Shown: one piece after another, positions 3,981 to 41,985 of the stretch | How the letters are laid out: each line of letters opens with the position of its first letter | Position numbering within the stretch: position 1 is the first letter of the stretch | Source of the DNA: Candidatus Yanofskybacteria bacterium RIFCSPHIGHO2_01_FULL_41_26 | GTDB lineage: Bacteria > Patescibacteriota > Minisyncoccia > 2-02-FULL-40-12 > GWA2-44-9 | Direction of reading: 5' to 3' | Length of the DNA: 64,000 nt | Assembly (NCBI GenBank): GCA_001794055.1 | Contig: MGJB01000012.1 | Location: 1,124-65,123, forward strand | The notes under the pieces: model-generated | What the model was told of the DNA's origin: nothing | Databases searched by the model: none | The model's input: only the letters and a program-made list of their open reading frames with translations | Position numbers and translations under genes: made by a program

Positions 3981-5198
3981 TTATTCATACCCCTTTAATT
4001 TTCCGAGTTTGTGGTGCTGGCGGATTTTTTCAAGAGCTTTAGCCTCTATTTGTCTTATGCGTTCCCGCGTGACCGCAAACACCTTGCCAACTTCTTCAAG
4101 AGTGTGCGTCACGCCATCAGCAAGACCGAACCGCATGTCAAGAATTTTTTGCTCTCTCGGGGTCAGATCGGCAATAATCTCATCAATATAAGTTTTGAGA
4201 ATTTTCCTTGCAGCCGACGTTGAGGGTGATATGGAATCGTCATCAGGAATAAAACTTTCCAACGAACTATCCTCGTCTTCATCTCCAACCGGCGCTTCGA
4301 GAGAAATTGTTTCCTGGGAAATTTTTTGGATATGTCTTACTTTTTCCACTTCCATTCCCATTTCTGAAGCAATTTCTTCCGGCATCGGATCGCGCCCCAA
4401 ATCTTGGACCAAACGCCTTACAACCTGCTGATATTTATTTATGGTTTCCACCATATGGACCGGGATACGGATAGTTCTGCCCTGGTCGGCCAAAGCACGG
4501 GTAATAGCCTGTCTTATCCACCAAGTAGCATAAGTTGAGAATTTATATCCTTTTTTATAATCAAATTTTTCAACGGCTTTAAATAAGCCAATGTTCCCCT
4601 CTTGAATCAAGTCAAGTAGGGTTAGGTTGGCAGAACGACCGACATATTTTTTGGCAATGGAAACAACCAAGCGGAGATTTGAAACAGCAAGTTTTTGCCT
4701 TGCCGATTCATCGTTTTTCTCAATTTTTTTTGCCAGCTCAACTTCCTCGTCTCCGGTAAGCAAGGGGTATCGGCCGATTTCTTTCAAATACATTTGAACC
4801 GAATCGGAAGCGACATCGCCGAATTCAGTTTCTATTTTCTTTTTCTCATCATATTCTTTAACCTTTTCTTCCTCAAAAACTCTTCCCGATTCTATGATGT
4901 TTATGTTGGCCGACTCCAATCTCTCATAAAGAGCTTCCAAACCCTTGATATCTTTTTCTATGCTCGGAAAAGCATTGAGAACTTCGGCTTGAGTCACGAA
5001 ACCTCTTGATTTGCCTTTTTCTATCAAAGCCAAAACACCACTTTCTGATATCGGGCTTTTTTTGCCTGCCTGCCGGTAAGTACGGCCGACTACTTGTTTT
5101 CTCTTGGCTTTTTTGGCAATCTTTTTTGCTTTTTTGGCCTTTTTTACTTTCTTTTTTATCGGCTTTTTGACTTTTTTCTTTTTTAGGTTTTTTTTCAT
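3981..5198 (-). CDS. rpoD: RNA polymerase sigma-70 factor RpoD
   Basis: Region 2 ([40 protein letters not shown]) and region 4 ([14 protein letters not shown]...[20 protein letters not shown]). Lys-rich N-terminal tail. Confidence 0.92.
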
Positions 5199-5220
5199 TT
5201 GTTTAGAAATTAGAAATTGG

Positions 5221-6984
5221 TTAATTATCTGACCTATGTATTTCTCCTAATCTGTTTAAAACTTTATTTGCCTCGGAGGCTAGTGCCAATTGATTTGTTT
5301 TGTTGTCGCCAGTCCTCATTTCAAACCCTATTTTTTCCAGCTTGATCCGAAGATGACGTTCCTCAAGTTTATGCATCAAATTAGTAAATTCCGTCTTTAA
5401 TTCTTCGTCCTTGGAGTCTTTCCAGAATTCTTGCGACTTTAGATATGCAAACTCCAATTTGTAGCTATGATTTTTATCCCTGAAATCTTTCAGAAGATCG
5501 GCCACGTTATTCGAATTAATTGATGTTAACGTAACAATTGCTTCAGCAGTTTGATCATCAAGCAGCTCCGGATTTATATTTTTAAGATCATCTTTAAAAA
5601 GTACCGGGTCTTTCATGATTAATGACAGTAGGGTGTCACTAAGCAGATCGGTAGCAATGGTTGGTTGAATTTTATCTTGCGTATTCTTGTTAATTTCGAG
5701 CTCTCCTTTTGACAGTTGTATATCGTTTGAAATAATTTCTTCTTTTGTTCTTAGTTCAATTGCCAGTTGGCCCGTCCAGTAATTCTTTTCCGTGTAAGTC
5801 GCTAATTTTTTAATAAAAGGGGCCAATTCGTTTATAATAGATTTTTTACCTTCTACAGAAAGCCGGTCAAATTTGGATAATGCCTTATTAAAAACAATCT
5901 CTAGAATTTGTTTTTCTTCGGCAGCAGTTTGTACCCAGTTTGAAGGATTTTTTCTTATTAAATCGGCCGGATCTTTGCATTCATTGTCTTGGATTTCTAT
6001 ACCCGTAACTCTAAAATTTTCGCCCAAAGCCAAGAGTATGTCTTTTTTGGTGGCCATATTTCCAGCCTTATCTGAATCAAGACAGAGACACAGATTGGTG
6101 GTATATCTCTTGATAAATTTCAAATGATTTTGTGCCAATGCAGTTCCCGAAGAAGCGACAACATTTTTTACTCCCGCCTGATGAGACATCAGGGTATCCA
6201 TGTTGCCCTCTACTAGTATACACAAATCGGATCTTTTAATCTCCATCCTTGCTTTGTTCAATCCGTAAAGAACCCCCGACTTGTCATAAATTCTGGTTTG
6301 AGGCGTGTTGATATACTTAGCAGTTTCTTTATCTTCTGTTCCAAATATTCTTGCAGAAAATCCAATAACCCGATCGTTGAGATCAAAAACAGGAAACATG
6401 ATTCTTGAACGGAACCTGTCATAAACTCCCGAACCATCATTCCTTTTGACAGCCATGCCAGCATCTATCATTTCCGTTTCGCTGTAACCGCAGTTCTTCA
6501 AAAAAGTTCCCAAAGCATTCCAGTCGTTAGGGGCAAATCCCAAACGAAATTCTAAAATTGTAGAATCAACAACTCCCCTGTTTTTTAGATATTCTAAAGC
6601 GAGTTTTCCTGTGTTCGAATTAAATTGTTTTTCAAAAAACTTTGTGGCTGACTCGCAAACTTCATATAATCTCGCTTTATCATCTTTAACATCAGGATTA
6701 AAAGAGCCGATCTCTACTCCGGCTTTGGTGGCAAGAATTCTTAAAGCTTCAGGAAACTCGACACCTTCTATGTCCTGGACAAAAGTAAACATATCGCCCC
6801 CCTTTGAACACCCGAAACAATGCCAAACTTGGCGTTCCGGAGAGACAACAAATGAGGGCGTTTTCTCATTATGAAAAGGACAGCGGGCCTTAAAATTCAT
6901 GCCCGCTTTTTGCAGTTTTAAATACCCAGAGATAACATCGACAACATCAAGCCGACCCTTAATTTTGGAGACATTATCTTCCAT
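5221..6984 (-). CDS. dnaG: DNA primase DnaG
   Basis: CHC2 zinc finger [11 protein letters not shown]...HCFGC, Toprim domain (LVEGNMD, DSDKAG). Lies immediately upstream of rpoD, the conserved dnaG-rpoD operon order. Confidence 0.92.
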
Positions 6985-13584: not shown

Positions 13585-13839
13585 TCACTTTTCGGTTTTG
13601 AAACGTGGCGCAAAATGTTTCTTTATAAACGCTCGACCGGAGCCAGACTTGAGATATTTTTCGAATTCAAAAGCCTTATATTTATCTTCGGTGGCAAAAT
13701 AAAATTCTAATGCCATGGGCAGACGGTTTGCCGTGGCAGGTACATGACCTTTTTGATGTCTATCCAATCTGTCCTGTAAATCGTCAGTGCAACCTACATA
13801 AAATCCATCTTTGCATTTTAAACTATATACGTAATACAT
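13585..13839 (-). CDS. GIY-YIG nuclease-domain small protein
   Basis: 84 aa: YYVYSLKCKDGFYVGCTDDLQDRLDRH, the GIY-YIG motif pattern of stand-alone ~85-aa family members. Confidence 0.7.
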   Translation of the reverse strand: MYYVYSLKCKDGFYVGCTDDLQDRLDRHQKGHVPATANRLPMALEFYFATEDKYKAFEFEKYLKSGSGRAFIKKHFAPRFKTEK

Positions 13840-13920
13840 AAAATTCTTTTGGCGAAGGTCGCCTTCGCAAACCTACTTGCGGACTATGTCACGCCGTAGG
13901 TTCGCTTCGGCGAACCGAAG

Positions 13921-14032
13921 GCGGTGTATTCTTGAAATAGCTCGAACGGAATTCGCTCCTCGTCCCGCTTCGCGCGGCTCGGATGAATCGGGCAGGCAAA
14001 ATGAATTCTGAAGCCGAGAGCATTAACAATTT
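13921..14032. repeat. Left imperfect inverted repeat (~110 bp) of GC-rich cassette
   Basis: ggcggtgtattcttgaaatagctcgaacggaattcgctcctcg...ggcaaaatgaattctgaagccgagagcatt is the reverse complement (~85-90% identity by eye) of 15023-15135. Confidence 0.6.
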
Positions 14033-14140
14033 CAAGTTTTTAATTGAGTTAAGTATAACTCAATTCAGTGAATTTTTCAATTTAAAATTATTGAAAAATT
14101 CACTGGCTTTGGCGGCAAATTCTCGCTCTTTGAATTATTA

Positions 14141-14170
14141 AAAAAACGGTCAGCTTGTGGGCTGACCGAC
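14141..14170 (-). terminator. Intrinsic terminator of cassette gene
   Basis: cggtcagc-ttgtggg-gctgaccg hairpin followed on the minus strand by a T7 run, ~65 nt after the stop at 14235. Confidence 0.5.
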
Positions 14171-14234
14171 CAACCGATAGGTTGGAATTTGTGCCTCGCA
14201 TGTGCGAGGGCTTGAATGCAGTTATGTCGAGAGA

Positions 14235-14795
14235 CTACTCGTCATCGGTCGTATGGACTCGCTCCTCGTTCGGAATTGGCTCCGGACGGAAAGCATGGTC
14301 GTGCAAGATGTGCGGTCCATGTTGTAATGCTCGCTCGAGCTTTTGACGAAGCACACCGGGCCTGCCATCCACATGTCTGTTCTTGCCCCGCCCAGCACGA
14401 CCCTCCAAGTGATCGAGAACATCCAGAAGGACGAAGTCCTTGTATGTTCCCGGTACCCGCCGAAGTTCGATCGTGAGTGTTCCATTGCCCAGGTCTTTGT
14501 CGACCTTGAGCCAAGCATTTGCACACCGAAGATGTTTGTCGCTCGGTGGCAACGAGTGGCCTCTGTCGAATTTCAGGACGACCTTCTTCGGCCCTCGATA
14601 TTCATCGCGGAATTGTCTGACCTCTCGGTCAACCAATGTTGTGACGTCATCGAAAAAGCCGAGTGCAATGACCATGTCGAGCCATGGCCACGAGGGAAAC
14701 TCCTCATCCGGCGTTTCGGGTAAAGCTTGGGTAAACGTCAGTAACCCTTGCTTTTTGTCAAAACCGACTTCTAGACTTGCTTTCAAGGTACTCAT
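14235..14795 (-). CDS. Hypothetical protein encoded in compositionally foreign (GC-rich) cassette
   Basis: 186 aa from the Met preceded by a strong SD (AAAGGAGGAGcgtaATG). The ORF-track start at 14885 lacks an RBS. No recognisable domain and an acidic C-terminus. Overlapping +strand ORFs are judged artefacts of the high GC. Confidence 0.5.
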   Translation of the reverse strand: MSTLKASLEVGFDKKQGLLTFTQALPETPDEEFPSWPWLDMVIALGFFDDVTTLVDREVRQFRDEYRGPKKVVLKFDRGHSLPPSDKHLRCANAWLKVDKDLGNGTLTIELRRVPGTYKDFVLLDVLDHLEGRAGRGKNRHVDGRPGVLRQKLERALQHGPHILHDHAFRPEPIPNEERVHTTDDE

Positions 14796-14873
14796 TACGC
14801 TCCTCCTTTGGTTATTCCGTCCACATTGAGAGGATATCAGGACGGAAGTTGCCAGCACCATGCTGGGCACCTT

Positions 14874-14902
14874 ACTATAAGTCATCGAAAGCAGAATGTC
14901 AA
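14874..14902 (-). promoter_or_regulatory. Consensus sigma70 promoter of cassette gene
   Basis: Minus strand reads TTGACA-17 nt-TATAGT, ~70 nt upstream of the SD/ATG at 14795. Confidence 0.5.
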
Positions 14903-15022
14903 TCGCAATAAAAAAATCAGCATCTCTGCTGTTTCTAATCTAAAACTCTTATGAAAAAATTTCTTTTGCCCTTCCAAAATATGATTCGAGCCGATTTGTT
15001 TTCAGGTTCTTTGGCAGTTTGG

Positions 15023-15135
15023 AATGCTCTCGGCTTCAGAATTCATTTTGCCCGCCCGCCCATTCCGAGCCGCGCTGTGCGCGGCGAGGAGCGAATTCCG
15101 TTCGAGCTAATTTCAGAATACACCGCCAATTGGAA
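15023..15135. repeat. Right imperfect inverted repeat (~110 bp) of GC-rich cassette
   Basis: Reverse complement of 13921-14032. Contains the internal hairpin ccgcgc-tgt-gcgcgg where the left copy has ccgc-ttcg-cgcgg. Confidence 0.6.
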
Positions 15136-15213
15136 AAATGCAAATTTGAAGAGGTTAGCTCGCGGCGCGTTCTGCGCCGCGAGCTGGCTTCCCCAAATTT
15201 GCATTTTCCCAAC

Positions 15214-15303
15214 TGGCGGAGAGGGTGGGATTTGAACCCACGATGCCCTTTCGAGCATGCCGCCTTTCCAAGGCGGTGGAATAAACCACTATCCGACCTC
15301 TCC
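15214..15303 (-). tRNA. tRNA-Ser (anticodon GGA), CCA encoded
   Basis: GGAGAGG acceptor stem pairing with CCUCUCC, anticodon arm CCGCC-UUGGAAA-GGCGG, long variable arm, T-arm GUGGG-UUCAAAU-CCCAC, 3' GCCA. A GC hairpin plus U-tract terminator follows at 15140-15205. Confidence 0.85.
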
Positions 15304-15331
15304 TAATCGAAAAATCATACCATTGGAATGG

Positions 15332-30673: not shown

Positions 30674-32032
30674 ATGAATCAAGCCGTATTAAAAAAACAC
30701 GCATCCACATTTCCCAAAATACCTGGCGTTTATATTTTCAAAAATTCGAATAATAAATTGTTATACATAGGCAAAGCTGCCAGTTTAAAAAGCAGAATTA
30801 GTTCATACCTAAAAACAAATGATTTCAGGATTAAAAAAATGCTTGAATTGGCTCGGTCGCTTGGATTTATTAGTACTCCATCAGAAATTGAAGCCTTAAT
30901 TCTGGAATCTCAATTAATCAAAAAATTCCAACCCGCGTTCAATATAACGCTTCGTGATGACAAACAGTATTTTTATGTGGTTTTCACGAAAGAAAAATTT
31001 CCCAAAATTTTTATTTCACATCAACCGCACATATTTAAATATCTAAATATTGAAGTATCGGATTCTGTTGGCCCATTCACTGACGGAGGTGCCCTAAAAA
31101 CAGCTCTGCGTGTTCTGCGCTCAATATTCCCTTATTGCACCTGCAAACAAACTCATCACAATTTCTGTTTGAATTACCATATTGATAAATGTCTCGGATT
31201 TTGTTGTTTAAAAAAACCAAGCCCGGAGACCCAAGGTCGAACCTTAGATTCATATCTGAAAAACATAGAAGCAATCAAAGACATTTTGAGCGGAAAAAAG
31301 AGTTCGCTTATTAAAAAACTTGAAAAAGAAATGAGGAAATCAGCTCAAAATGGTAATTTAGAAAAAGCCATTGAATTGAGAAAAAAAATATCAAACCTAA
31401 AGAGGATTTTCGAAAACGCTAAAATAATAAAAAGCTTCAAAATCTTAGAAGCTCACCATTCAGACTTAGAATCATTATTAAAAATTCAAAAACCAATAAC
31501 CAGAATTGAAGGTTATGATGTTTCCAATATCCAGGGTGCCCATGCCGTCGGTTCCATGGTGACATTTGTTCATGGCCAACCGGACAAAAATTTCTACCGC
31601 AAATTCAAAATTAAAAAAACCAACAAAAAAGAGGAGGGCGATTTATTTCACGATCGTAGTAAAAACACAACTTACGGCGGAGACACAGGAATGTTAAAAG
31701 AAATACTTGAAAGACGCTTTAAACATGAGGAATGGCCATTCCCTGATTTAGTATTGATAGATGGAGGGAAAGCCCAACTGAACGTTGCGCGTTCAGTAAT
31801 TTCCAATTATTATACCACACTTTTAAAAAAACAAAGGGCACCTTTATTAATTGCATTGGCTAAAAATAAAAAACATGTCGGTGAAAAAATATTTATTTCC
31901 GGAAGAAAAAATCCGCTTCCATTAACCAAACTCTCCTCTTCCGACAGAAATCTCCTCCTCCACATAGATTCCGAAGCCCACCGGTTTGCGATAGGATATT
32001 ACAGAAGACTTCACAGAAAATTGTTTAAGTAG
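30674..32032 (+). CDS. uvrC: UvrC-like excinuclease subunit lacking C-terminal HhH domain
   Basis: GIY-YIG N-terminal (PGVYIFKNSNNKLLYIGKAASLKSRISSY...ILESQLIKKFQPAFNITLRDDK), UVR-like helix, RNase-H-like endonuclease block IEGYDVSNIQGAHAVGSMV and DSEAHRFAIGYYRR. Ends at 452 aa. Confidence 0.75.
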   Translation: MNQAVLKKHASTFPKIPGVYIFKNSNNKLLYIGKAASLKSRISSYLKTNDFRIKKMLELARSLGFISTPSEIEALILESQLIKKFQPAFNITLRDDKQYFYVVFTKEKFPKIFISHQPHIFKYLNIEVSDSVGPFTDGGALKTALRVLRSIFPYCTCKQTHHNFCLNYHIDKCLGFCCLKKPSPETQGRTLDSYLKNIEAIKDILSGKKSSLIKKLEKEMRKSAQNGNLEKAIELRKKISNLKRIFENAKIIKSFKILEAHHSDLESLLKIQKPITRIEGYDVSNIQGAHAVGSMVTFVHGQPDKNFYRKFKIKKTNKKEEGDLFHDRSKNTTYGGDTGMLKEILERRFKHEEWPFPDLVLIDGGKAQLNVARSVISNYYTTLLKKQRAPLLIALAKNKKHVGEKIFISGRKNPLPLTKLSSSDRNLLLHIDSEAHRFAIGYYRRLHRKLFK

Positions 32033-33029
32033 GTTTCGCCTTATCACATTCGCCAATCACAATCTTTCTCAATTTATAAGCATTACCGTGAGACAAAAGA
32101 CCTCGATAAGAATTTATTGTTTCTGGTTTTGAACTTTCTTTAATTCTTTTAAACATTCTTCTTTTGGTAGCCGTCCTCAAAACCCTATGATCCAGAAAAT
32201 GCACCCAACCCAGAAAATCCACTCCCGAAGAAAGAGTTTTGATGAATACTTTGTCGGGATGAATATTGAGCTTCAAATGTTCTGAAAGAAAATCCGCTAT
32301 TTTGGGCAATAATTCCTCAAGCCATAATTTATCCTGTGACATAATCACAAAATCATCAGCATAACGGATATAGTATCTCGCCTTGAGTTTGTGTTTAATA
32401 AATTGATCAAATTTATTCATATAAATATTCACGAACAGTTGAGAAGTTAAATTGCCCAATGGCAGTCCTGTTCCGACTCTTACTGAAAAACTATCTATAA
32501 TAACCCAGAGAAGGAACAAGATTTTTTCATCCGATATATAACTTTTTAAGACTGCTTTCAAAGTATCGTGGTTCACGGATGCAAAGAACTTACGAATATC
32601 ACACTTCAAAACCCAAATCGTCTTTTTGTTATTCTCTGAAATTTTATAAAAAAACTTACGAAATTTATCCATTGCCTTGTAGGTGGCTTTGTCATACCGG
32701 CAGGAATATGAGTCAGAAATAAATGTCCTATCAAAAAATGGGTACAAAAACCTGTATAGTGCCCTGTGAAGAACCCTGTCTCGAACAGAGGCCTTGTGTA
32801 TATTTCTCGGTTTTGGGTCTGATATTTTAAAAGCTTCATAGCCATAATGTCGACATGACATCACAACTAAATCATTATGAAGATTCATAATATTAGCCAT
32901 CAGATCCCGCTCAAATTCCTGGACATCTTTGCGTTTTTTCTTGCCTATGATAAACTCCTTCCACGCCTCAAGCAGATTATCAATACTAACTATATCGTTA
33001 TATTTATGAGTGAATTTAATTCTAGACAT
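32025..33029 (-). CDS. Diversity-generating retroelement reverse transcriptase
   Basis: RT motifs: LGNLTSQLFVNIYM (DGR-type I/LGxxxSQ motif 4 in place of group-II QGxxxSP), YADDFVIM (YxDD), 334 aa. Confidence 0.85.
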   Translation of the reverse strand: MSRIKFTHKYNDIVSIDNLLEAWKEFIIGKKKRKDVQEFERDLMANIMNLHNDLVVMSCRHYGYEAFKISDPKPRNIHKASVRDRVLHRALYRFLYPFFDRTFISDSYSCRYDKATYKAMDKFRKFFYKISENNKKTIWVLKCDIRKFFASVNHDTLKAVLKSYISDEKILFLLWVIIDSFSVRVGTGLPLGNLTSQLFVNIYMNKFDQFIKHKLKARYYIRYADDFVIMSQDKLWLEELLPKIADFLSEHLKLNIHPDKVFIKTLSSGVDFLGWVHFLDHRVLRTATKRRMFKRIKESSKPETINSYRGLLSHGNAYKLRKIVIGECDKAKPT

Positions 33030-33087
33030 AATCCTTTAAGCCCCCCCCCGGCTTTTACCGGTACTTCAAAAAGTTAAAGCCGCTTAT

Positions 33088-33429
33088 TTGATTTGGTTTA
33101 AATTTTATCAGATCATACCGAAAGCCCATAGACACACGCTTGGCCAACAGATAGACACGCTTTGGATAGAATTGATAAAGACATTGGCCACGGCGACATT
33201 TCTTCAAAGGCAGGAAAAACTGCCCTATGTCCGTTTGGCTATCCAGAAAGTTGATACGCTAAAAGTGCTTTTGATGATTCTTTGGGAAGCCGGCTCGCTT
33301 CAAAACGAACAATACATTTCTCTTTCAATACCCATCGAAGAGATCGGTAAAAATCTCGGCGGTTGGAGTGGCCAGCTTGAAAAACAAAACTCCCCCACCT
33401 CGCCAAACGGCAAAGCGGGGAAGAAATAA
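33088..33429 (+). CDS. avd: Avd-like accessory (four-helix-bundle) protein of DGR
   Basis: 113 aa, TTG start. IPKAHRHTLGQQI...LAIQKVDTLKVLLMILWEAG...EEIGKNLGGW...GKAGKK resembles the Avd / TIGR02436 four-helix-bundle family. Divergent from the RT. Confidence 0.65.
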   Translation: MIWFKFYQIIPKAHRHTLGQQIDTLWIELIKTLATATFLQRQEKLPYVRLAIQKVDTLKVLLMILWEAGSLQNEQYISLSIPIEEIGKNLGGWSGQLEKQNSPTSPNGKAGKK

Positions 33430-33554
33430 AGATGGTTGCGAGCACGGCCGAGGGGTTGTTGGCGTTACGATCGTTGTCGAGCCAGTTGTAGTTCCAGTTC
33501 CACGAACCGTCGTTGTTGAAGTAGAGGTAAAGCATGTAACGATTGCCGTTCGGG
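33426..33554 (-). repeat. DGR template repeat (TR)
   Basis: 129 bp aligned to VR1 (33915-34043). All 24 mismatches fall on TR adenines of the minus strand. TR frame is Asn(AAY)-rich: SPNGNRYMLYLYFNNDGSWNWNYNWLDNDRNANNPSAV. Confidence 0.8.
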
Positions 33555-33699
33555 CTGCGCAGTATTGTATAGCATGCCTTCATGGTCATCACTGCCCATC
33601 GAGTACTCTCCGGGCTGTATCGCATTCGGTATCATAATACCATAGCATCCCATACCAAGTATCTTCATTTTTTGAAGTTTCTGCATGCACCACACTATT

Positions 33700-33790
33700 T
33701 CAAACGCATGGTCGAAAATATTCTGGATGCATGGATACTGGCTTCGGTAGCGGAAAACACATGGTCGCCCGCATATTCACCTATCGCCGA
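33700..33790 (-). repeat. Conserved ~85-nt element, copy 1 (between VR1 terminator and TR)
   Basis: Minus strand GGCGATAGGTGAATATGCGGG...TTTTCCGCTACCGAAGCCAGTATCCATGCATCCAGA. A near-copy lies at 40795-40880 downstream of the second target. Confidence 0.45.
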
Positions 33791-33814
33791 AAACATATTA
33801 ACACAACGTATTTA

Positions 33815-33861
33815 AATAAAAAACAAATCCTGTCGGGAGACACAGCGTCTCCCGACAGGAT
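33815..33861 (-). terminator. Perfect 15-bp hairpin plus U-tract downstream of VR1
   Basis: atcctgtcgggagac-acagc-gtctcccgacaggat (33827-33861), followed on the minus strand by UUGUUUUUUAUUU, ~50 nt after the target stop. Confidence 0.55.
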
Positions 33862-33903
33862 AAGGGCTAAGTTACAAAGGGCTAGAGCTAACACCCTAAG
33901 AAC

Positions 33904-34584
33904 TTAGTTCTGACTTGCGAGCACGGCCGAGGGGTCGCCGGCGCTACGACCGCGGCCGAGCCAGTCGCAGCCCCAGCCCCACGAACCGCCGCCGTCGAAG
34001 CAGAGGCAAAGCACGCAACGATCGCCGTCCGGGCTGCGCAGTACGACGCCGTCGAAGAAAATGAACTGGATGTCGCCATTCACTCTCTCCTTGAAGCGCG
34101 CCGGGAGTTGTTCGCGGTTCTCCCAGAACGCCTTGAAGGCGTTCTCATCCAGACGGATGCGGCCGTCGGACTTGAGACGCTTGACACGTACCTCGCCGGT
34201 CATGACTGACTCGCCTCGCTTGAGACAAGTGACGAGTTGGACTTTGTCGAGGCCTAACTCGGCCAGCGCGGCCGAACGGAGGTCTCTCTCCTCCTCGCCC
34301 TCCAGACCGTCACCGCTGGCCGGTCCGCGCCATACGCTCCAACCGGCGCCGATGAATGTGGCGGGGTTGAACAGCTTGGAACGGTCAATCGGGATGACGT
34401 GAGGTTTGGCAGAAACGTCGACAGCGATCGGTTTGACCACCGCTCCGCCCCGAAGAATTGTCAGCAACCCCCTGACCAGAGCATTGTTTTCGGCGAAGTT
34501 GTTCAGCTCCGCCGGAGTTCCACCCTCTGCGTCCCATGTAGCACACACCCTGTCCGCGAGCCCAACGCTAAATTCTGACTTCAT
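33904..34584 (-). CDS. DGR target protein 1 (variable repeat VR1 at C-terminus, 33915-34043)
   Basis: 226 aa, GC-rich. C-terminal VLRSPDGDRCVLCLCFDGGGSWGWGCDWLGRGRSAGDPSAVLASQN is encoded by VR1. Start codon uncertain (SD spacing poor). Confidence 0.75.
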   Translation of the reverse strand: MKSEFSVGLADRVCATWDAEGGTPAELNNFAENNALVRGLLTILRGGAVVKPIAVDVSAKPHVIPIDRSKLFNPATFIGAGWSVWRGPASGDGLEGEEERDLRSAALAELGLDKVQLVTCLKRGESVMTGEVRVKRLKSDGRIRLDENAFKAFWENREQLPARFKERVNGDIQFIFFDGVVLRSPDGDRCVLCLCFDGGGSWGWGCDWLGRGRSAGDPSAVLASQN

Positions 34585-41027: not shown

Positions 41028-41735
41028 CTAACTTGCGAGCACCGCCGCAGGATTGTTGCCGTGGAAGCGGTAGCCCAGCCAGCGGTAGCCCCAGCGCCAC
41101 GCACCGTCGTCCCAGAACAGAAACCGGACACACAGGCTGCCGTTGGAGTTGCGGTAGATGGTCCCCCAAAAGAATACGTACTTGCCTTTCCATTCCTCTG
41201 GGATGAGCTCCGGGTGAGCCAGCAGGTAGTCCAGGACATTGGCGTTGAGCACGGGCTCGGACGCCAGCTCCTTACGGAGCTTGTTACCCTCAATGCACTT
41301 GCTGTCCATCTGGTTTGGCGAGAGGTGGAGCTTGATCTTGGACAGGTCCAGTTTGAACTGGCCACCCTTTTTGTGATTCTCCACTCCTCTCCAGCCCTGC
41401 GGCAGGAAGGGGTCGGCGTCGCAGTCGATCACATGTTGGACCAGTCCAACTCTCGCAGCCCCGCAAAGGGCTTGCCGAACGAGTTGTAGCAAGTCCTTCC
41501 GTCCGGCCAGTGCCCGAATTTGTCCGGGTGTGAAGCCGAGCCGAACGAGGACATCCTCGAGTTCCAGTGCGGCCCACACGCTTGGGTCCGTTTTGTGAAC
41601 CCTGGCTGTGGTTGCCTGGCTCCACGAAGACGCCTTCCTCAAGACCTCGAAGTCGTGAGGGGTCACGCCCAACCGGTCTAAAATCTCAACGGTTGCGTGA
41701 AGTTCCGAATGCGGCATTTTGATCAGATCTCCCAT
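41028..41735 (-). CDS. DGR-target paralogue 2 with VR-like C-terminus (VR2, 41033-41158)
   Basis: 235 aa from MGDLIKM, preceded by AAAGGAGA SD. GC-rich. C-terminal IYRNSNGSLCVRFLFWDDGAWRWGYRWLGYRFHGNNPAAVLAS is homologous to the TR/VR1 fold. Nucleotide similarity to the TR is interrupted by non-adenine differences. Confidence 0.65.
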   Translation of the reverse strand: MGDLIKMPHSELHATVEILDRLGVTPHDFEVLRKASSWSQATTARVHKTDPSVWAALELEDVLVRLGFTPGQIRALAGRKDLLQLVRQALCGAARVGLVQHVIDCDADPFLPQGWRGVENHKKGGQFKLDLSKIKLHLSPNQMDSKCIEGNKLRKELASEPVLNANVLDYLLAHPELIPEEWKGKYVFFWGTIYRNSNGSLCVRFLFWDDGAWRWGYRWLGYRFHGNNPAAVLAS

Positions 41736-41985
41736 GATTGGATCTCCTTTCGTCGTTTTTGCTCCCCCTTGTTCAAGAGGTCGCATACGCCAGCGGGCTT
41801 CCGGGTACTTCCGGATTTGCCATAGCAGACAAAGGCCGAATAAATCAGCCACTCTATGCTAAGGCAAATCTCGCAAATTATATGAATAATCAAAGAACTA
41901 TAATATGTTTTAATTATACTCCTTTCCCATAAAAAGTCAAGTTATAAAAGTGGCTTAATTCAAGGTTTTTGATATACTTTCTCTT

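Follow-up and report, generated by a model that had tools for sequence, protein, structure and literature searches.

The closest described systems to the element reported here are the ssrA islands of Dehalococcoides. Their integrase DsiB, a large serine recombinase (LSR) of the CcrB type, is encoded on the reverse strand directly beside the left attachment site (attL), the islands occur in tandem, and members without the integrase have been read as cis-mobilizable elements (McMurdie et al. 2011, PMC3146451). According to the 2014 survey of the Islander database, serine integrases are not known to target tRNA genes (PMC4383910). We analyzed a stretch of 64,000 nucleotides (nt) from Candidatus Yanofskybacteria bacterium RIFCSPHIGHO2_01_FULL_41_26 (contig MGJB01000012.1, positions 1,124 to 65,123), called the window throughout, in which a single-gene islet (13920-15219) sits directly behind a tRNA-Ser(GGA) gene. 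A first-pass annotation, made from the letters of this DNA alone, had described it as a cassette between inverted repeats of about 110 bp, either resembling a miniature inverted-repeat transposable element (MITE) with cargo or representing an integrated islet at a tRNA gene. Comparison with related loci (numbered with the prefix L) makes it probable that the islet is a non-autonomous derivative of an LSR-family integrative element at a tRNA 3' end, of the cis-mobilizable type.

Other mobile elements resemble parts of this layout. The cis-mobilizable elements (CIMEs) of the Streptococcus ICESt type derive from integrative and conjugative elements (ICEs) with a tyrosine integrase and are larger. 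The staphylococcal cassette chromosome elements SCCmec are large, use the LSRs encoded by ccrAB, both of which are needed, and target a protein gene, orfX/rlmH. Integrons depend on the tyrosine integrase IntI and on attC hairpin sites, and their cassettes are usually promoterless and driven by the promoter Pc. A large part of bacterial diversity belongs to the Patescibacteria or Candidate Phyla Radiation (CPR), in which the islet was found; their genomes measure about 1 Mb and are considered poor in mobile elements. The family to which the islet belongs is widespread and apparently undescribed; the literature, of which our coverage was incomplete, yielded no earlier account of Patescibacteria with serine recombinases at tRNA genes.

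Anatomy of the islet and its cargo gene

The tRNA-Ser(GGA) gene (15214..15303, minus strand), the proposed integration target, was recognized by ARAGORN and by Rfam (tRNA, 55.6 bits) beside the cassette, where the first-pass annotation had placed it. The gene is intact. Its last bases, CCGCCA (15214-15219), form the core shared with the element, and conserved element DNA begins right behind them. Directly 3' of the tRNA lies block T (15174..15219, minus strand), a trailer that in other genomes likewise follows tRNA-Ser genes with several different anticodons and that we propose as the attL arm. Across a loop of 5 nt it abuts T' (15123..15168, plus strand), an inverted second copy of 46 nt with 85% identity. 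Together, T' and T make up an inverted repeat (15123-15168 / 15174-15219) directly after the tRNA, much stronger than the annotated one and absent from the first-pass annotation, with T as its proximal arm. The hairpin formed by its 46-nt arms has a folding energy of -74.5 kcal/mol (z = -13.7) and takes in the last 6 nt of the tRNA. In an Rfam scan of the locus only the tRNA exceeded the threshold; a structured RNA was accordingly rejected as a candidate, the miRNA-type matches merely reflecting the long hairpin.

The repeats originally annotated are real. Their arms of 105 nt (13920-14024 and 15023-15127) are 87% complementary with a spacing of 998 nt, and correspond to two inverted copies of one conserved block, C. 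A 23-mer of these arms occurs at two sites only in the window, namely the two arms themselves, where shuffled sequences lead one to expect 0, and blastn found no third copy within the 64 kb. Folded singly, the arms are no more stable than shuffles (z -1.4 to +1.0). The first-pass annotation had also claimed that the arms contain internal hairpins differing in a compensatory way. This holds for the family, in which the central hairpin of C covaries across 23 copies (95.7% of cells paired, 22 double-sided changes, a level reached by 0 of 500 shuffles). It does not hold for the two arms of the window relative to each other, because the left arm combines the two main variants in a chimera (CCGCGC-GAA-GCGGGA) that breaks two pairs.

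Reading away from the tRNA, the proximal, inverted copy C' (15023..15127, plus strand) is the right arm of the annotated repeat. On the plus strand it runs ...GAATACACCGCC and then into T, as at the junctions of tandem units elsewhere, and thereby resembles the attachment site of a free element (attP). It is followed by block D1 (14985..15017, minus strand), identified by a block scan, by DNA alignment to LSR genes and by LSR translations, and by block D2 (GGGCAAAAGAAATTTTTTCATAA; 14949..14971, minus strand), the conserved left border of the cargo, right behind which the variable segment starts. This strain-variable segment (14145..14950, minus strand), delimited by comparison with L011, holds promoter, leader, open reading frame (ORF) and terminator. 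Its right border is block A (TTCAAAGAGCGAGAATTTGCCGCC; 14111..14134, minus strand), identical in DNA to codons ~27-34 of the LSR gene. Block B (AAAAACTTGAAATTGTTAAT; 14022..14041, minus strand) matches codons ~35-43. Between A and B lie two optional hairpins (14042..14105), H1 (14066-14105) and H2 (14042-14065), present in some loci and absent in others, with compensatory changes across loci. The A/B junction (a GCCGCC^AAAG site) is a hot spot for small insertions in many loci, among them H1 and H2; insertions elsewhere are GC-rich hairpin repeats of the 'CCTTCGATAAACTCAGGACAAGC' type, frequent in these genomes. The distal copy of C (13920..14024, minus strand), the left arm of the annotated repeat, is the proposed arm of the right attachment site (attR). 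In it, family-wide conservation stops at ACACCG (13922), followed by CC and then by host DNA. Only CCG(CC) (13920-13924) is common to the tRNA 3' end and this distal boundary, which is too short to be significant alone. No target-site duplication (TSD) was found at the outer flanks, which read ...CGAACCGAA before GGCGG on one side and AATTGG... after CCGCC on the other.

The cargo ORF of 186 amino acids (aa) occupies 14235..14795 on the minus strand (coding 14238-14795, stop 14235-14237). The expression signals ascribed to it in the first-pass annotation are all present: a sigma-70-type promoter TTGACA-17-TATAGT with 11/12 matches (14874..14902, minus strand), a Shine-Dalgarno sequence AAAGGAGGAG 6 nt before the ATG, and an intrinsic terminator (14147..14168, minus strand) with a hairpin at 14168-14147 and then T7. 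The promoter is kept in the orthologous cassettes of L001 and L007. Between promoter and start codon, alignment with these cassettes delimits a 5' leader (14796..14873, minus strand) with the Shine-Dalgarno sequence and two hairpins, CCAGCAtggTGCTGG and TTCCGTCC...GGACGGAA, the fold of which is not exceptional (z = -0.5). The leader is ~90% identical to its orthologous counterparts (L001 5915-6000, L007 5925-6000), at a divergence at which synonymous sites are saturated (synonymous rate dS 1.3-1.5), which suggests a conserved regulatory leader.

The ORF has 53.4% GC and 57% GC at third codon positions (GC3), compared with 41.8% GC for the window and a GC3 of 33-46% for neighboring genes. A windowed profile, as had been called for, showed that only 2.2% of 558-nt windows are as GC-rich as the ORF. 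The possibility that the ORF is spurious for want of conservation is contradicted by 19 homologues with identities of 58-100% and by a ratio of nonsynonymous to synonymous rates (dN/dS) of 0.10-0.12 against two orthologues. The cargo is a real gene under purifying selection. Members of its family (73% aa identity) stand behind a different tRNA in each of three genomes, namely Ser-GGA (the window), Leu-CAA (L001) and Ser-GCT (L007). In orthologues from unrelated contexts (L001-L007) the ORF has only 74-76% DNA identity, while a 35-nt stretch just behind the terminator has 91-94%. In L001, an insertion sequence (IS; 4741-5846) with 33-bp terminal inverted repeats (TIRs) and a transposase-like 185-aa ORF occupies the exact 5' edge of the orthologous cassette, in place of D2.

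As noted from the letters alone, the protein has no recognizable domain; Pfam, PADLOC, PHROGs and NCBIfam gave no match, and only 4 clusters of sequence relatives exist among 1.84 billion representative proteins. The suggested structure prediction was carried out, and the AlphaFold2 model (pLDDT 78, pTM 0.72) consists of two beta-meanders packed on helices, without a fold match in PDB or in BFVD (predicted viral protein structures). The cargo protein is a soluble alpha/beta ORFan. Since it is strain-variable, as is other island cargo, and has strong expression signals, one may guess by analogy at a role as an accessory factor in defence or host interaction.

Strain variation and the block family at tRNA 3' ends

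Exact-protein look-ups with the flanking Ham1 (dITP/XTP pyrophosphatase) and GIY-YIG proteins yielded about 20 contigs of the same species, most of which equal the window. L011, from a co-occurring strain, is 99.9% identical to the window down to 14951 and again from 14144. Between these limits, it carries a different segment of 623 nt, with a GC-rich ORF of 150 aa that has a hydrophobic N-terminus and its own promoter, Shine-Dalgarno sequence and terminator. Because L011 differs exactly there and the flanks are the same, the exchangeable unit is 14145-14950, and the repeats are a stable frame around it. The breaks in L013 and L063 fall at these boundaries as well (14954, 14144). Many assemblies break in or beside the repeats and at the allele boundaries.

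The Ham1 gene lies upstream of the tRNA, and the order Ham1, then tRNA-Ser(GGA), is kept in metagenome relatives whose Ham1 is 60-81% identical. In the synteny comparison that the first-pass annotation had proposed from GIY-YIG to the tRNA, the GIY-YIG gene (13585-13839, minus strand, AT-rich) adjoins no other copy of the family and is therefore treated as a host neighbor. In one relative (L069, Ham1 73% identical) the identical tRNA 3' end is followed directly by AT-rich host DNA. In another (L066, Ham1 80%) a different cargo with D2...A-B-C is found at the same tRNA, and the host gene further downstream is the one that lies close to the tRNA in L067 and L098. Partial second copies of the 3' part of tRNA-Ser occur in L067, L073, L075 and L098 and are read as scars of earlier events. 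A related observation concerns insertions of ~100-200 nt directly behind tRNA-Ser that are followed by a second tRNA 3' part (L017 ~6170-6460, L026 ~2320-2560, L043, L067 5100-5200, L073, L075 and L098 5786-5900), some of which appear highly structured. With their duplicated 3' end they look like scars of integration or replacement, or like a separate small element.

The exact 21-mer of block A (AAAGAGCGAGAATTTGCCGCC) was found in 35 genome stretches of a species-representative genome collection, 32 of them labelled CPR/Patescibacteria (Parcubacteria, Yanofsky-, Zambryski-, Doudna-, Sung- and Liptonbacteria, 'Saccharibacteria' and Patescibacteria). The common order, in the orientation of tRNA and cargo, is tRNA, T, (D1) D2, promoter-leader-ORF-terminator, A (H1 H2) B C, and then unrelated DNA. 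Upstream sequence reaches 1.5 kb or more in 28 copies, and 20 of these have a co-oriented tRNA-Ser (19) or tRNA-Leu (1) within 2.6 kb; an oppositely oriented tRNA-Ser or tRNA-Leu was found in 0 of the 28. The copies mostly lie 0.5-2 kb downstream of the co-oriented tRNA-Ser, the anticodons being GGA, GCT, TGA and CGA. Block T begins right behind the tRNA bases CCGCCA. Block C ends ...GAATACACCG in all 23 copies, and the CCG(CC) at this end is identical to the bases of the tRNA 3' end. Beyond it lies either unrelated sequence or, in tandem arrays, block T; the junction C.CCGCCA.T is seen four times in L031 and also in L032 and L024. It had been considered that the arms might turn out to be a ubiquitous repeat of the repetitive extragenic palindromic (REP) type unrelated to the cassette. 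They are widespread, yet always tied to the cassette system.

These data bear on the view that the repeats are the ends of the element, as in a MITE-like non-autonomous transposon with TIRs of ~105 nt, a transposase acting in trans and a passenger gene. A long inverted repeat around a single gene with no transposase inside, and the same repeat-flanked layout in a second genome (L024), speak for it. The exchangeable segment, however, lies well inside the repeats, most family members have a single copy of C at the distal end and no proximal inverted copy, and the outer ends lack a TSD (CCGAA before GGCGG, AATTG after CCGCC). In addition, the outer end of C equals the terminal bases of the tRNA and co-varies with the tRNA type, and the units form direct tandem arrays of the type C-core-T-D-cargo-A-B-C. 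The sole recombinase linked to the blocks is of the serine type rather than DDE or Y1, a weak Y1_Tnp match (L007) and the IS of L001 being single occurrences. This part of the first-pass annotation is largely refuted, and a MITE-like transposon is very improbable. An IS200/IS605 origin was likewise dropped, as the Y1_Tnp match near L007 does not recur at other loci.

Equally improbable is the absence of any site-specific mobility, with the blocks as host regulatory or terminator DNA behind tRNA-Ser and turnover by homologous recombination after transformation. Homologous recombination predicts swap boundaries within conserved blocks, as seen in the species of the window; the blocks are more conserved than the cargo, and several loci lie beside comF and pil genes, although this concerns gene order only. 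Against it, exact 21-35-mers are common to distant classes with differing tRNA and neighbor genes, and the same blocks stand behind tRNA-Ser of four anticodons, tRNA-Leu and tRNA-Ile. Related genomes lack the blocks at the same tRNA, and the blocks represent pieces of a recombinase gene found complete at the same position elsewhere. As to the neighborhood itself, cassette-bearing tRNA-Ser genes near comF and pilM-pilN-pilO-pilB were found in L018, L020, L037, L038, L044 and others, which is probably conserved gene order only. ORFs of the LAGLIDADG homing-endonuclease type lie beside or overlap the tRNA of the cassette in L032 (2540-3454), L035 (6033-6710) and L037 (4316-5326).

The cargos of the family are ~30 unrelated ORFans of 51-289 aa with almost no Pfam domains. 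Every one of them ends in its own GC hairpin and T-run, and in 38 loci their mean GC content is 53% compared with 45% for the loci, whatever the GC content of the host. Tandem single-gene units with conserved spacers (L025, L027, L031, L038), this diversity of ORFans and the exchange of one cassette within a fixed frame could also describe an integron-like array, in which single-gene cassettes with conserved spacers (A-D1-D2 or A-B-C-T-D) are captured at a platform beside the tRNA. No tyrosine integrase of the IntI type was linked to the blocks in the 38 loci, however, each cassette has its own promoter and terminator, the spacers are rearranged fragments of an LSR gene and not attC-type sites, and the arrays seen are short, none exceeding four units. 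Membership among the integrons is thereby refuted; what remains is the claim that the family works like one, and we regard the integron-like explanation as unlikely.

The serine recombinase and the proposed mechanism

Clustering of all ORFs around the block loci revealed, in L020 and L044, LSR genes with the domains Resolvase, Recombinase and Zn_ribbon_recom. In these two loci and in five further contexts (L051-L055) such genes converge on the tRNA and overlap its 3' end, the targets in L051-L055 being Ser-GGA, Ile-TAT and one odd tRNA. A related, more distant LSR in L001 converges on tRNA-Arg and stops ~100 nt short of it. The blocks of the islet recur within these genes. Blocks A-B are identical over 35-41 nt to LSR codons ~27-43, a stretch that is conserved even at synonymous sites in 3/4 genes and behind which the LSR genes have a 17-nt hairpin with compensatory changes. 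After this hairpin, codons ~47-53 match the initial 20 nt of D1 (CCAAACTGCCAAAGAACCTG when the flanking CCAAA is included), and the remainder of D1 encodes the C-terminal LSR motif KxIGSNHIL. The antisense translation of T in 12 loci has 38-70% aa identity, and 54-70% in ten of them, to the C-terminal tail of the LSR of L020. By these matches several of the blocks are fragments of the LSR gene or its flanks, and T corresponds to its tail region. An attP inside the LSR ORF of the SSV-like kind, with C and T continuing the coding sequence, was rejected, the similarity beyond A-B being not above shuffles (z = 0 to 2.9).

Loci with the recombinase have two architectures. The simple form (L020) has the order tRNA-Ser, T, LSR (antisense), ~130 nt, cargo, A-H1-H2-B-C and host. 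In the second form (L051, L052, L053) the order is tRNA, T, LSR (antisense), T'.core'.C', D1-D2, cargo, A-(H)-B-C and host. The inverted copy T'.core'.C' between LSR and cargo places the LSR within the T/T' pair and the cargo within the C'/C pair. It is the exact reverse complement of the tandem-unit junction C.core.T. In these three loci the T/T' pairs are 58-100 nt long, 77-100% identical (94-100% in L051 and L053) and 1.4 kb apart with the LSR between, while the C'/C pairs of 98-145 nt are 99-100% identical. Where the target is tRNA-Ile (L051), the core is GCAC(CA) and the end of C reads ...GAATAGA followed by GCAC; at tRNA-Ser the corresponding sequences are CCGCC(A) and ...GAATACA followed by CCGCC. 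The window and L024, from another genome, have the second form without the LSR. In the window T and T' abut as the hairpin described above, and both pairs have drifted, to 85% for T/T' and 87% for C'/C.

An obvious alternative role for the double pair of inverted repeats is in an invertible, phase-variable segment, in which a serine invertase flips the cargo between C' and C and the recombinase between T and T', the window being a frozen switch. Repeat pairs of LSR-bearing relatives are locus-specific and have identities of 77-100%, in most cases 94-100%. Extra perfect 20-nt inverted copies of LSR codons stand upstream of the gene and co-vary between loci, namely of the D1 segment in L053 and L051 and of the LSR's own block-A segment in L020. 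This pattern fits ongoing recombination or gene conversion between the arms. The recombinase family is annotated 'DNA invertase Pin-like' in the source records, and many assemblies break at the repeats. The breaks, however, are accounted for by the repeats and the two cargo alleles, and the enzyme has the domain set of large serine integrases and not that of small invertases. In every locus examined, cargo and tRNA point the same way, with the LSR divergent from the cargo, and no flipped copy was seen in the ~20 same-species contigs or in any relative. Moreover, inversion would not switch expression of the cargo, because the promoter lies inside the segment. We therefore regard inversion as unlikely.

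Returning to integration, we propose that the family consists of small integrative elements of Patescibacteria that are mobilized by the LSR and aimed at the extreme 3' ends of tRNA genes, mostly tRNA-Ser. The simple autonomous form would have the order tRNA.core, T, antisense LSR, cargo, A-(H1, H2)-B-C.core and host, with attL as tRNA.CCGCCA.T and attR as C.CCG(CC).host. The putative attP, C.CCGCCA.T, would exist on an excised circle or at a tandem junction; the predicted circular junction reads ...GAATACACCGCCA-GTTGGGAAAATGC.... Recombination of the element site C.core.T with the last bases of the tRNA, which the LSR would catalyze at the CCG(CC) core, would generate attL and attR, and repeated integration would build tandem arrays. 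Deletion of the LSR would leave units of ~1 kb with a single gene that only a helper could move, and copies without LSR may be such deletion derivatives. In the islet of the window (13920-15219) the LSR would have been deleted in this way, leaving T and T' abutting and C' and C to drift to 87% identity. With the LSR deleted, the copy would no longer be self-mobile, and at most an LSR element could move it in trans or in cis; it is a decayed, degenerate member of the family. Between strains, the cargo alone may have been swapped by homologous recombination in D1/D2 and A/B/C with an incoming family cassette, which is the simplest route because the flanks of both alleles are identical. In its broad sense, the earlier suggestion of a non-autonomous mobile cassette or islet at a tRNA gene is thus supported by the family, the tRNA linkage, the cargo swap and the unoccupied relative.

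Several observations weigh against integration by an LSR. In agreement with the first-pass annotation, which had seen no integrase, tblastn found no recombinase of the LSR family in the 64 kb. Five LSR copies were read (L020 1728-3233, L051 5001-6530, L052 5001-6500, L053 5001-6470, L054 273-1745), and each has one in-frame stop or frameshifts, being otherwise full-length (~490 aa). The homologues number 2199 at E < 1e-10, and the best 120 of these 2199 have 176-345 aa. As all copies read are broken and the best 120 homologues are short, there is no demonstrably intact enzyme. With a shared core of only 3-6 nt, the att sites are assigned from where conservation ends and not from a long direct repeat. 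A circular junction was not seen outside tandem arrays, C.core.T occurring only there and as the inverted internal copy, and this internal attP-like copy has no place in the textbook scheme of LSR integration. In the species of the window, the exact-protein look-ups recovered only two cargo alleles, and the junction predicted for an empty site (tRNA-Ser ...CTCTCCGCC joined to TTCGGTTCGCCGAAGCGAACC) had 0 matches in metagenome contigs. Nor was the block-A 21-mer found in viral contigs, an absence that also led us to reject a viral origin. Finally, the flanking blocks are 90-100% conserved, whereas synonymous sites in the orthologous cargos are saturated. Because the blocks outlast these sites, they must be kept by selection or gene conversion and do not merely reflect recent transfer; their candidate roles are those of recombination site, terminator or promoter insulation.

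The broken LSR copies suggest either pervasive recent inactivation or a systematic problem of gene calling or assembly. Recoding of stop codons was rejected, since the stop codons (TAA, TAG or TGA) vary in position; they are therefore independent nonsense mutations and do not reflect an alternative genetic code.

A more far-reaching and only tentative possibility is a phylum-wide gene-capture system, in which LSRs, unlike any characterized serine integrase, act at the terminal bases of tRNA genes, elements reduced to single-gene expression cassettes of ~1 kb with a standard promoter, leader and terminator pile up in tandem and are swapped between strains, and the A-B stretch of the recombinase's own 5' coding sequence and the inverted copy are working recombination sites. 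If this were true, recombinase and cargo modules would be exchanged and rearranged independently, and organisms considered to hold very few mobile elements would have an analogue of the integron that is based on a serine recombinase.

With respect to the surroundings of the islet, three GC-rich hairpins (GCGAAGGtcgCCTTCGC, CCTAC...GTAGG and GGTTCGCttcgGCGAACC) fill the 80 nt from the end of block C to the start of the GIY-YIG gene (13841-13919). Over 3 kb, the window and the NCBI contig MGKG01000022.1 (GCA_001794675.1) are 100% identical. Elsewhere in the window (32028-34584 and 41028-41852) lies a diversity-generating retroelement (DGR). It comprises a reverse transcriptase (RVT_1; 32028-33029, minus strand), the accessory protein bAvd (33088-33426, plus strand), an Asn-rich template-like copy (~33239-33400, minus strand) and two target genes of 59-63% GC (33904-34584 and ~41028-41780, both minus strand). 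The C-termini of the targets differ from the template at Asn positions, and both targets have TTGACT-17-TATAAT promoters and a common downstream element of ~130 nt.

Significance and comparison with known systems

If the proposed mechanism is correct, much of the strain-level gene flux in Patescibacteria passes through one recognizable tRNA-Ser platform, served by an LSR family with thousands of copies, and the target range of serine integrases extends to tRNA genes. Blocks A, B, C, D and T would then provide a simple signature for accessory genes and integration sites in uncultured organisms. They would give access to a pool of ~30 or more ORFan cargo families, whose strong and conserved expression signals suggest importance to the cell. 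The same loci would supply candidate integrase/att pairs as well as promoter, leader and terminator modules for genetic tools that are now under development for these bacteria.

Compared with known systems, the family shares with MITEs and passenger transposons the inverted repeats around a short segment without transposase, and differs from them in the lack of a TSD, in repeats that are not mobile ends and in its tie to site-specific integration at a tRNA. As in integron cassettes, exchangeable single-gene units, mostly ORFans, form short arrays at a fixed-site platform; in contrast to integrons, neither IntI nor attC nor promoterless, Pc-driven cassettes were found. With SCCmec the family has in common an LSR-driven insertion at the 3' end of a conserved gene and composite, tandem and integrase-less relatives, but fragments of the recombinase gene serve as flanks only here. 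Islands formed by tyrosine integrases at tRNA and tmRNA genes (PMC4383910) resemble it in the integration at a tRNA 3' end that is restored by element DNA, in foreign composition, in cargo and in occasional tandem arrays. Their recombinase belongs to another family, and the displaced tRNA fragment is tens of bases long in place of CCG(CC). The likeness to CIMEs consists in the missing integrase, the att-type bounds beside a tRNA-type target, the tandem arrays and the mobility that an autonomous neighbor could in principle confer; here, by contrast, the enzyme family is of the serine type, the units carry a single gene and the att sites are putative.

The Dehalococcoides ssrA islands match most closely, with an LSR on the reverse strand beside attL at the 3' end of a stable RNA, tandem units, integrase-less members and strain-specific cargo. 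The target differs, being the last 3-6 nt of a tRNA (Ser, Leu, Ile) here and the T-loop of tmRNA, with a 20-bp direct repeat, there. Units of ~1 kb with one gene contrast with islands of many kilobases that carry a six-gene integration module. Finally, recombinase-gene fragments in the flanks and the double inverted-repeat layout (T/T', C'/C) are found only in the family described here, whose hosts are Patescibacteria.

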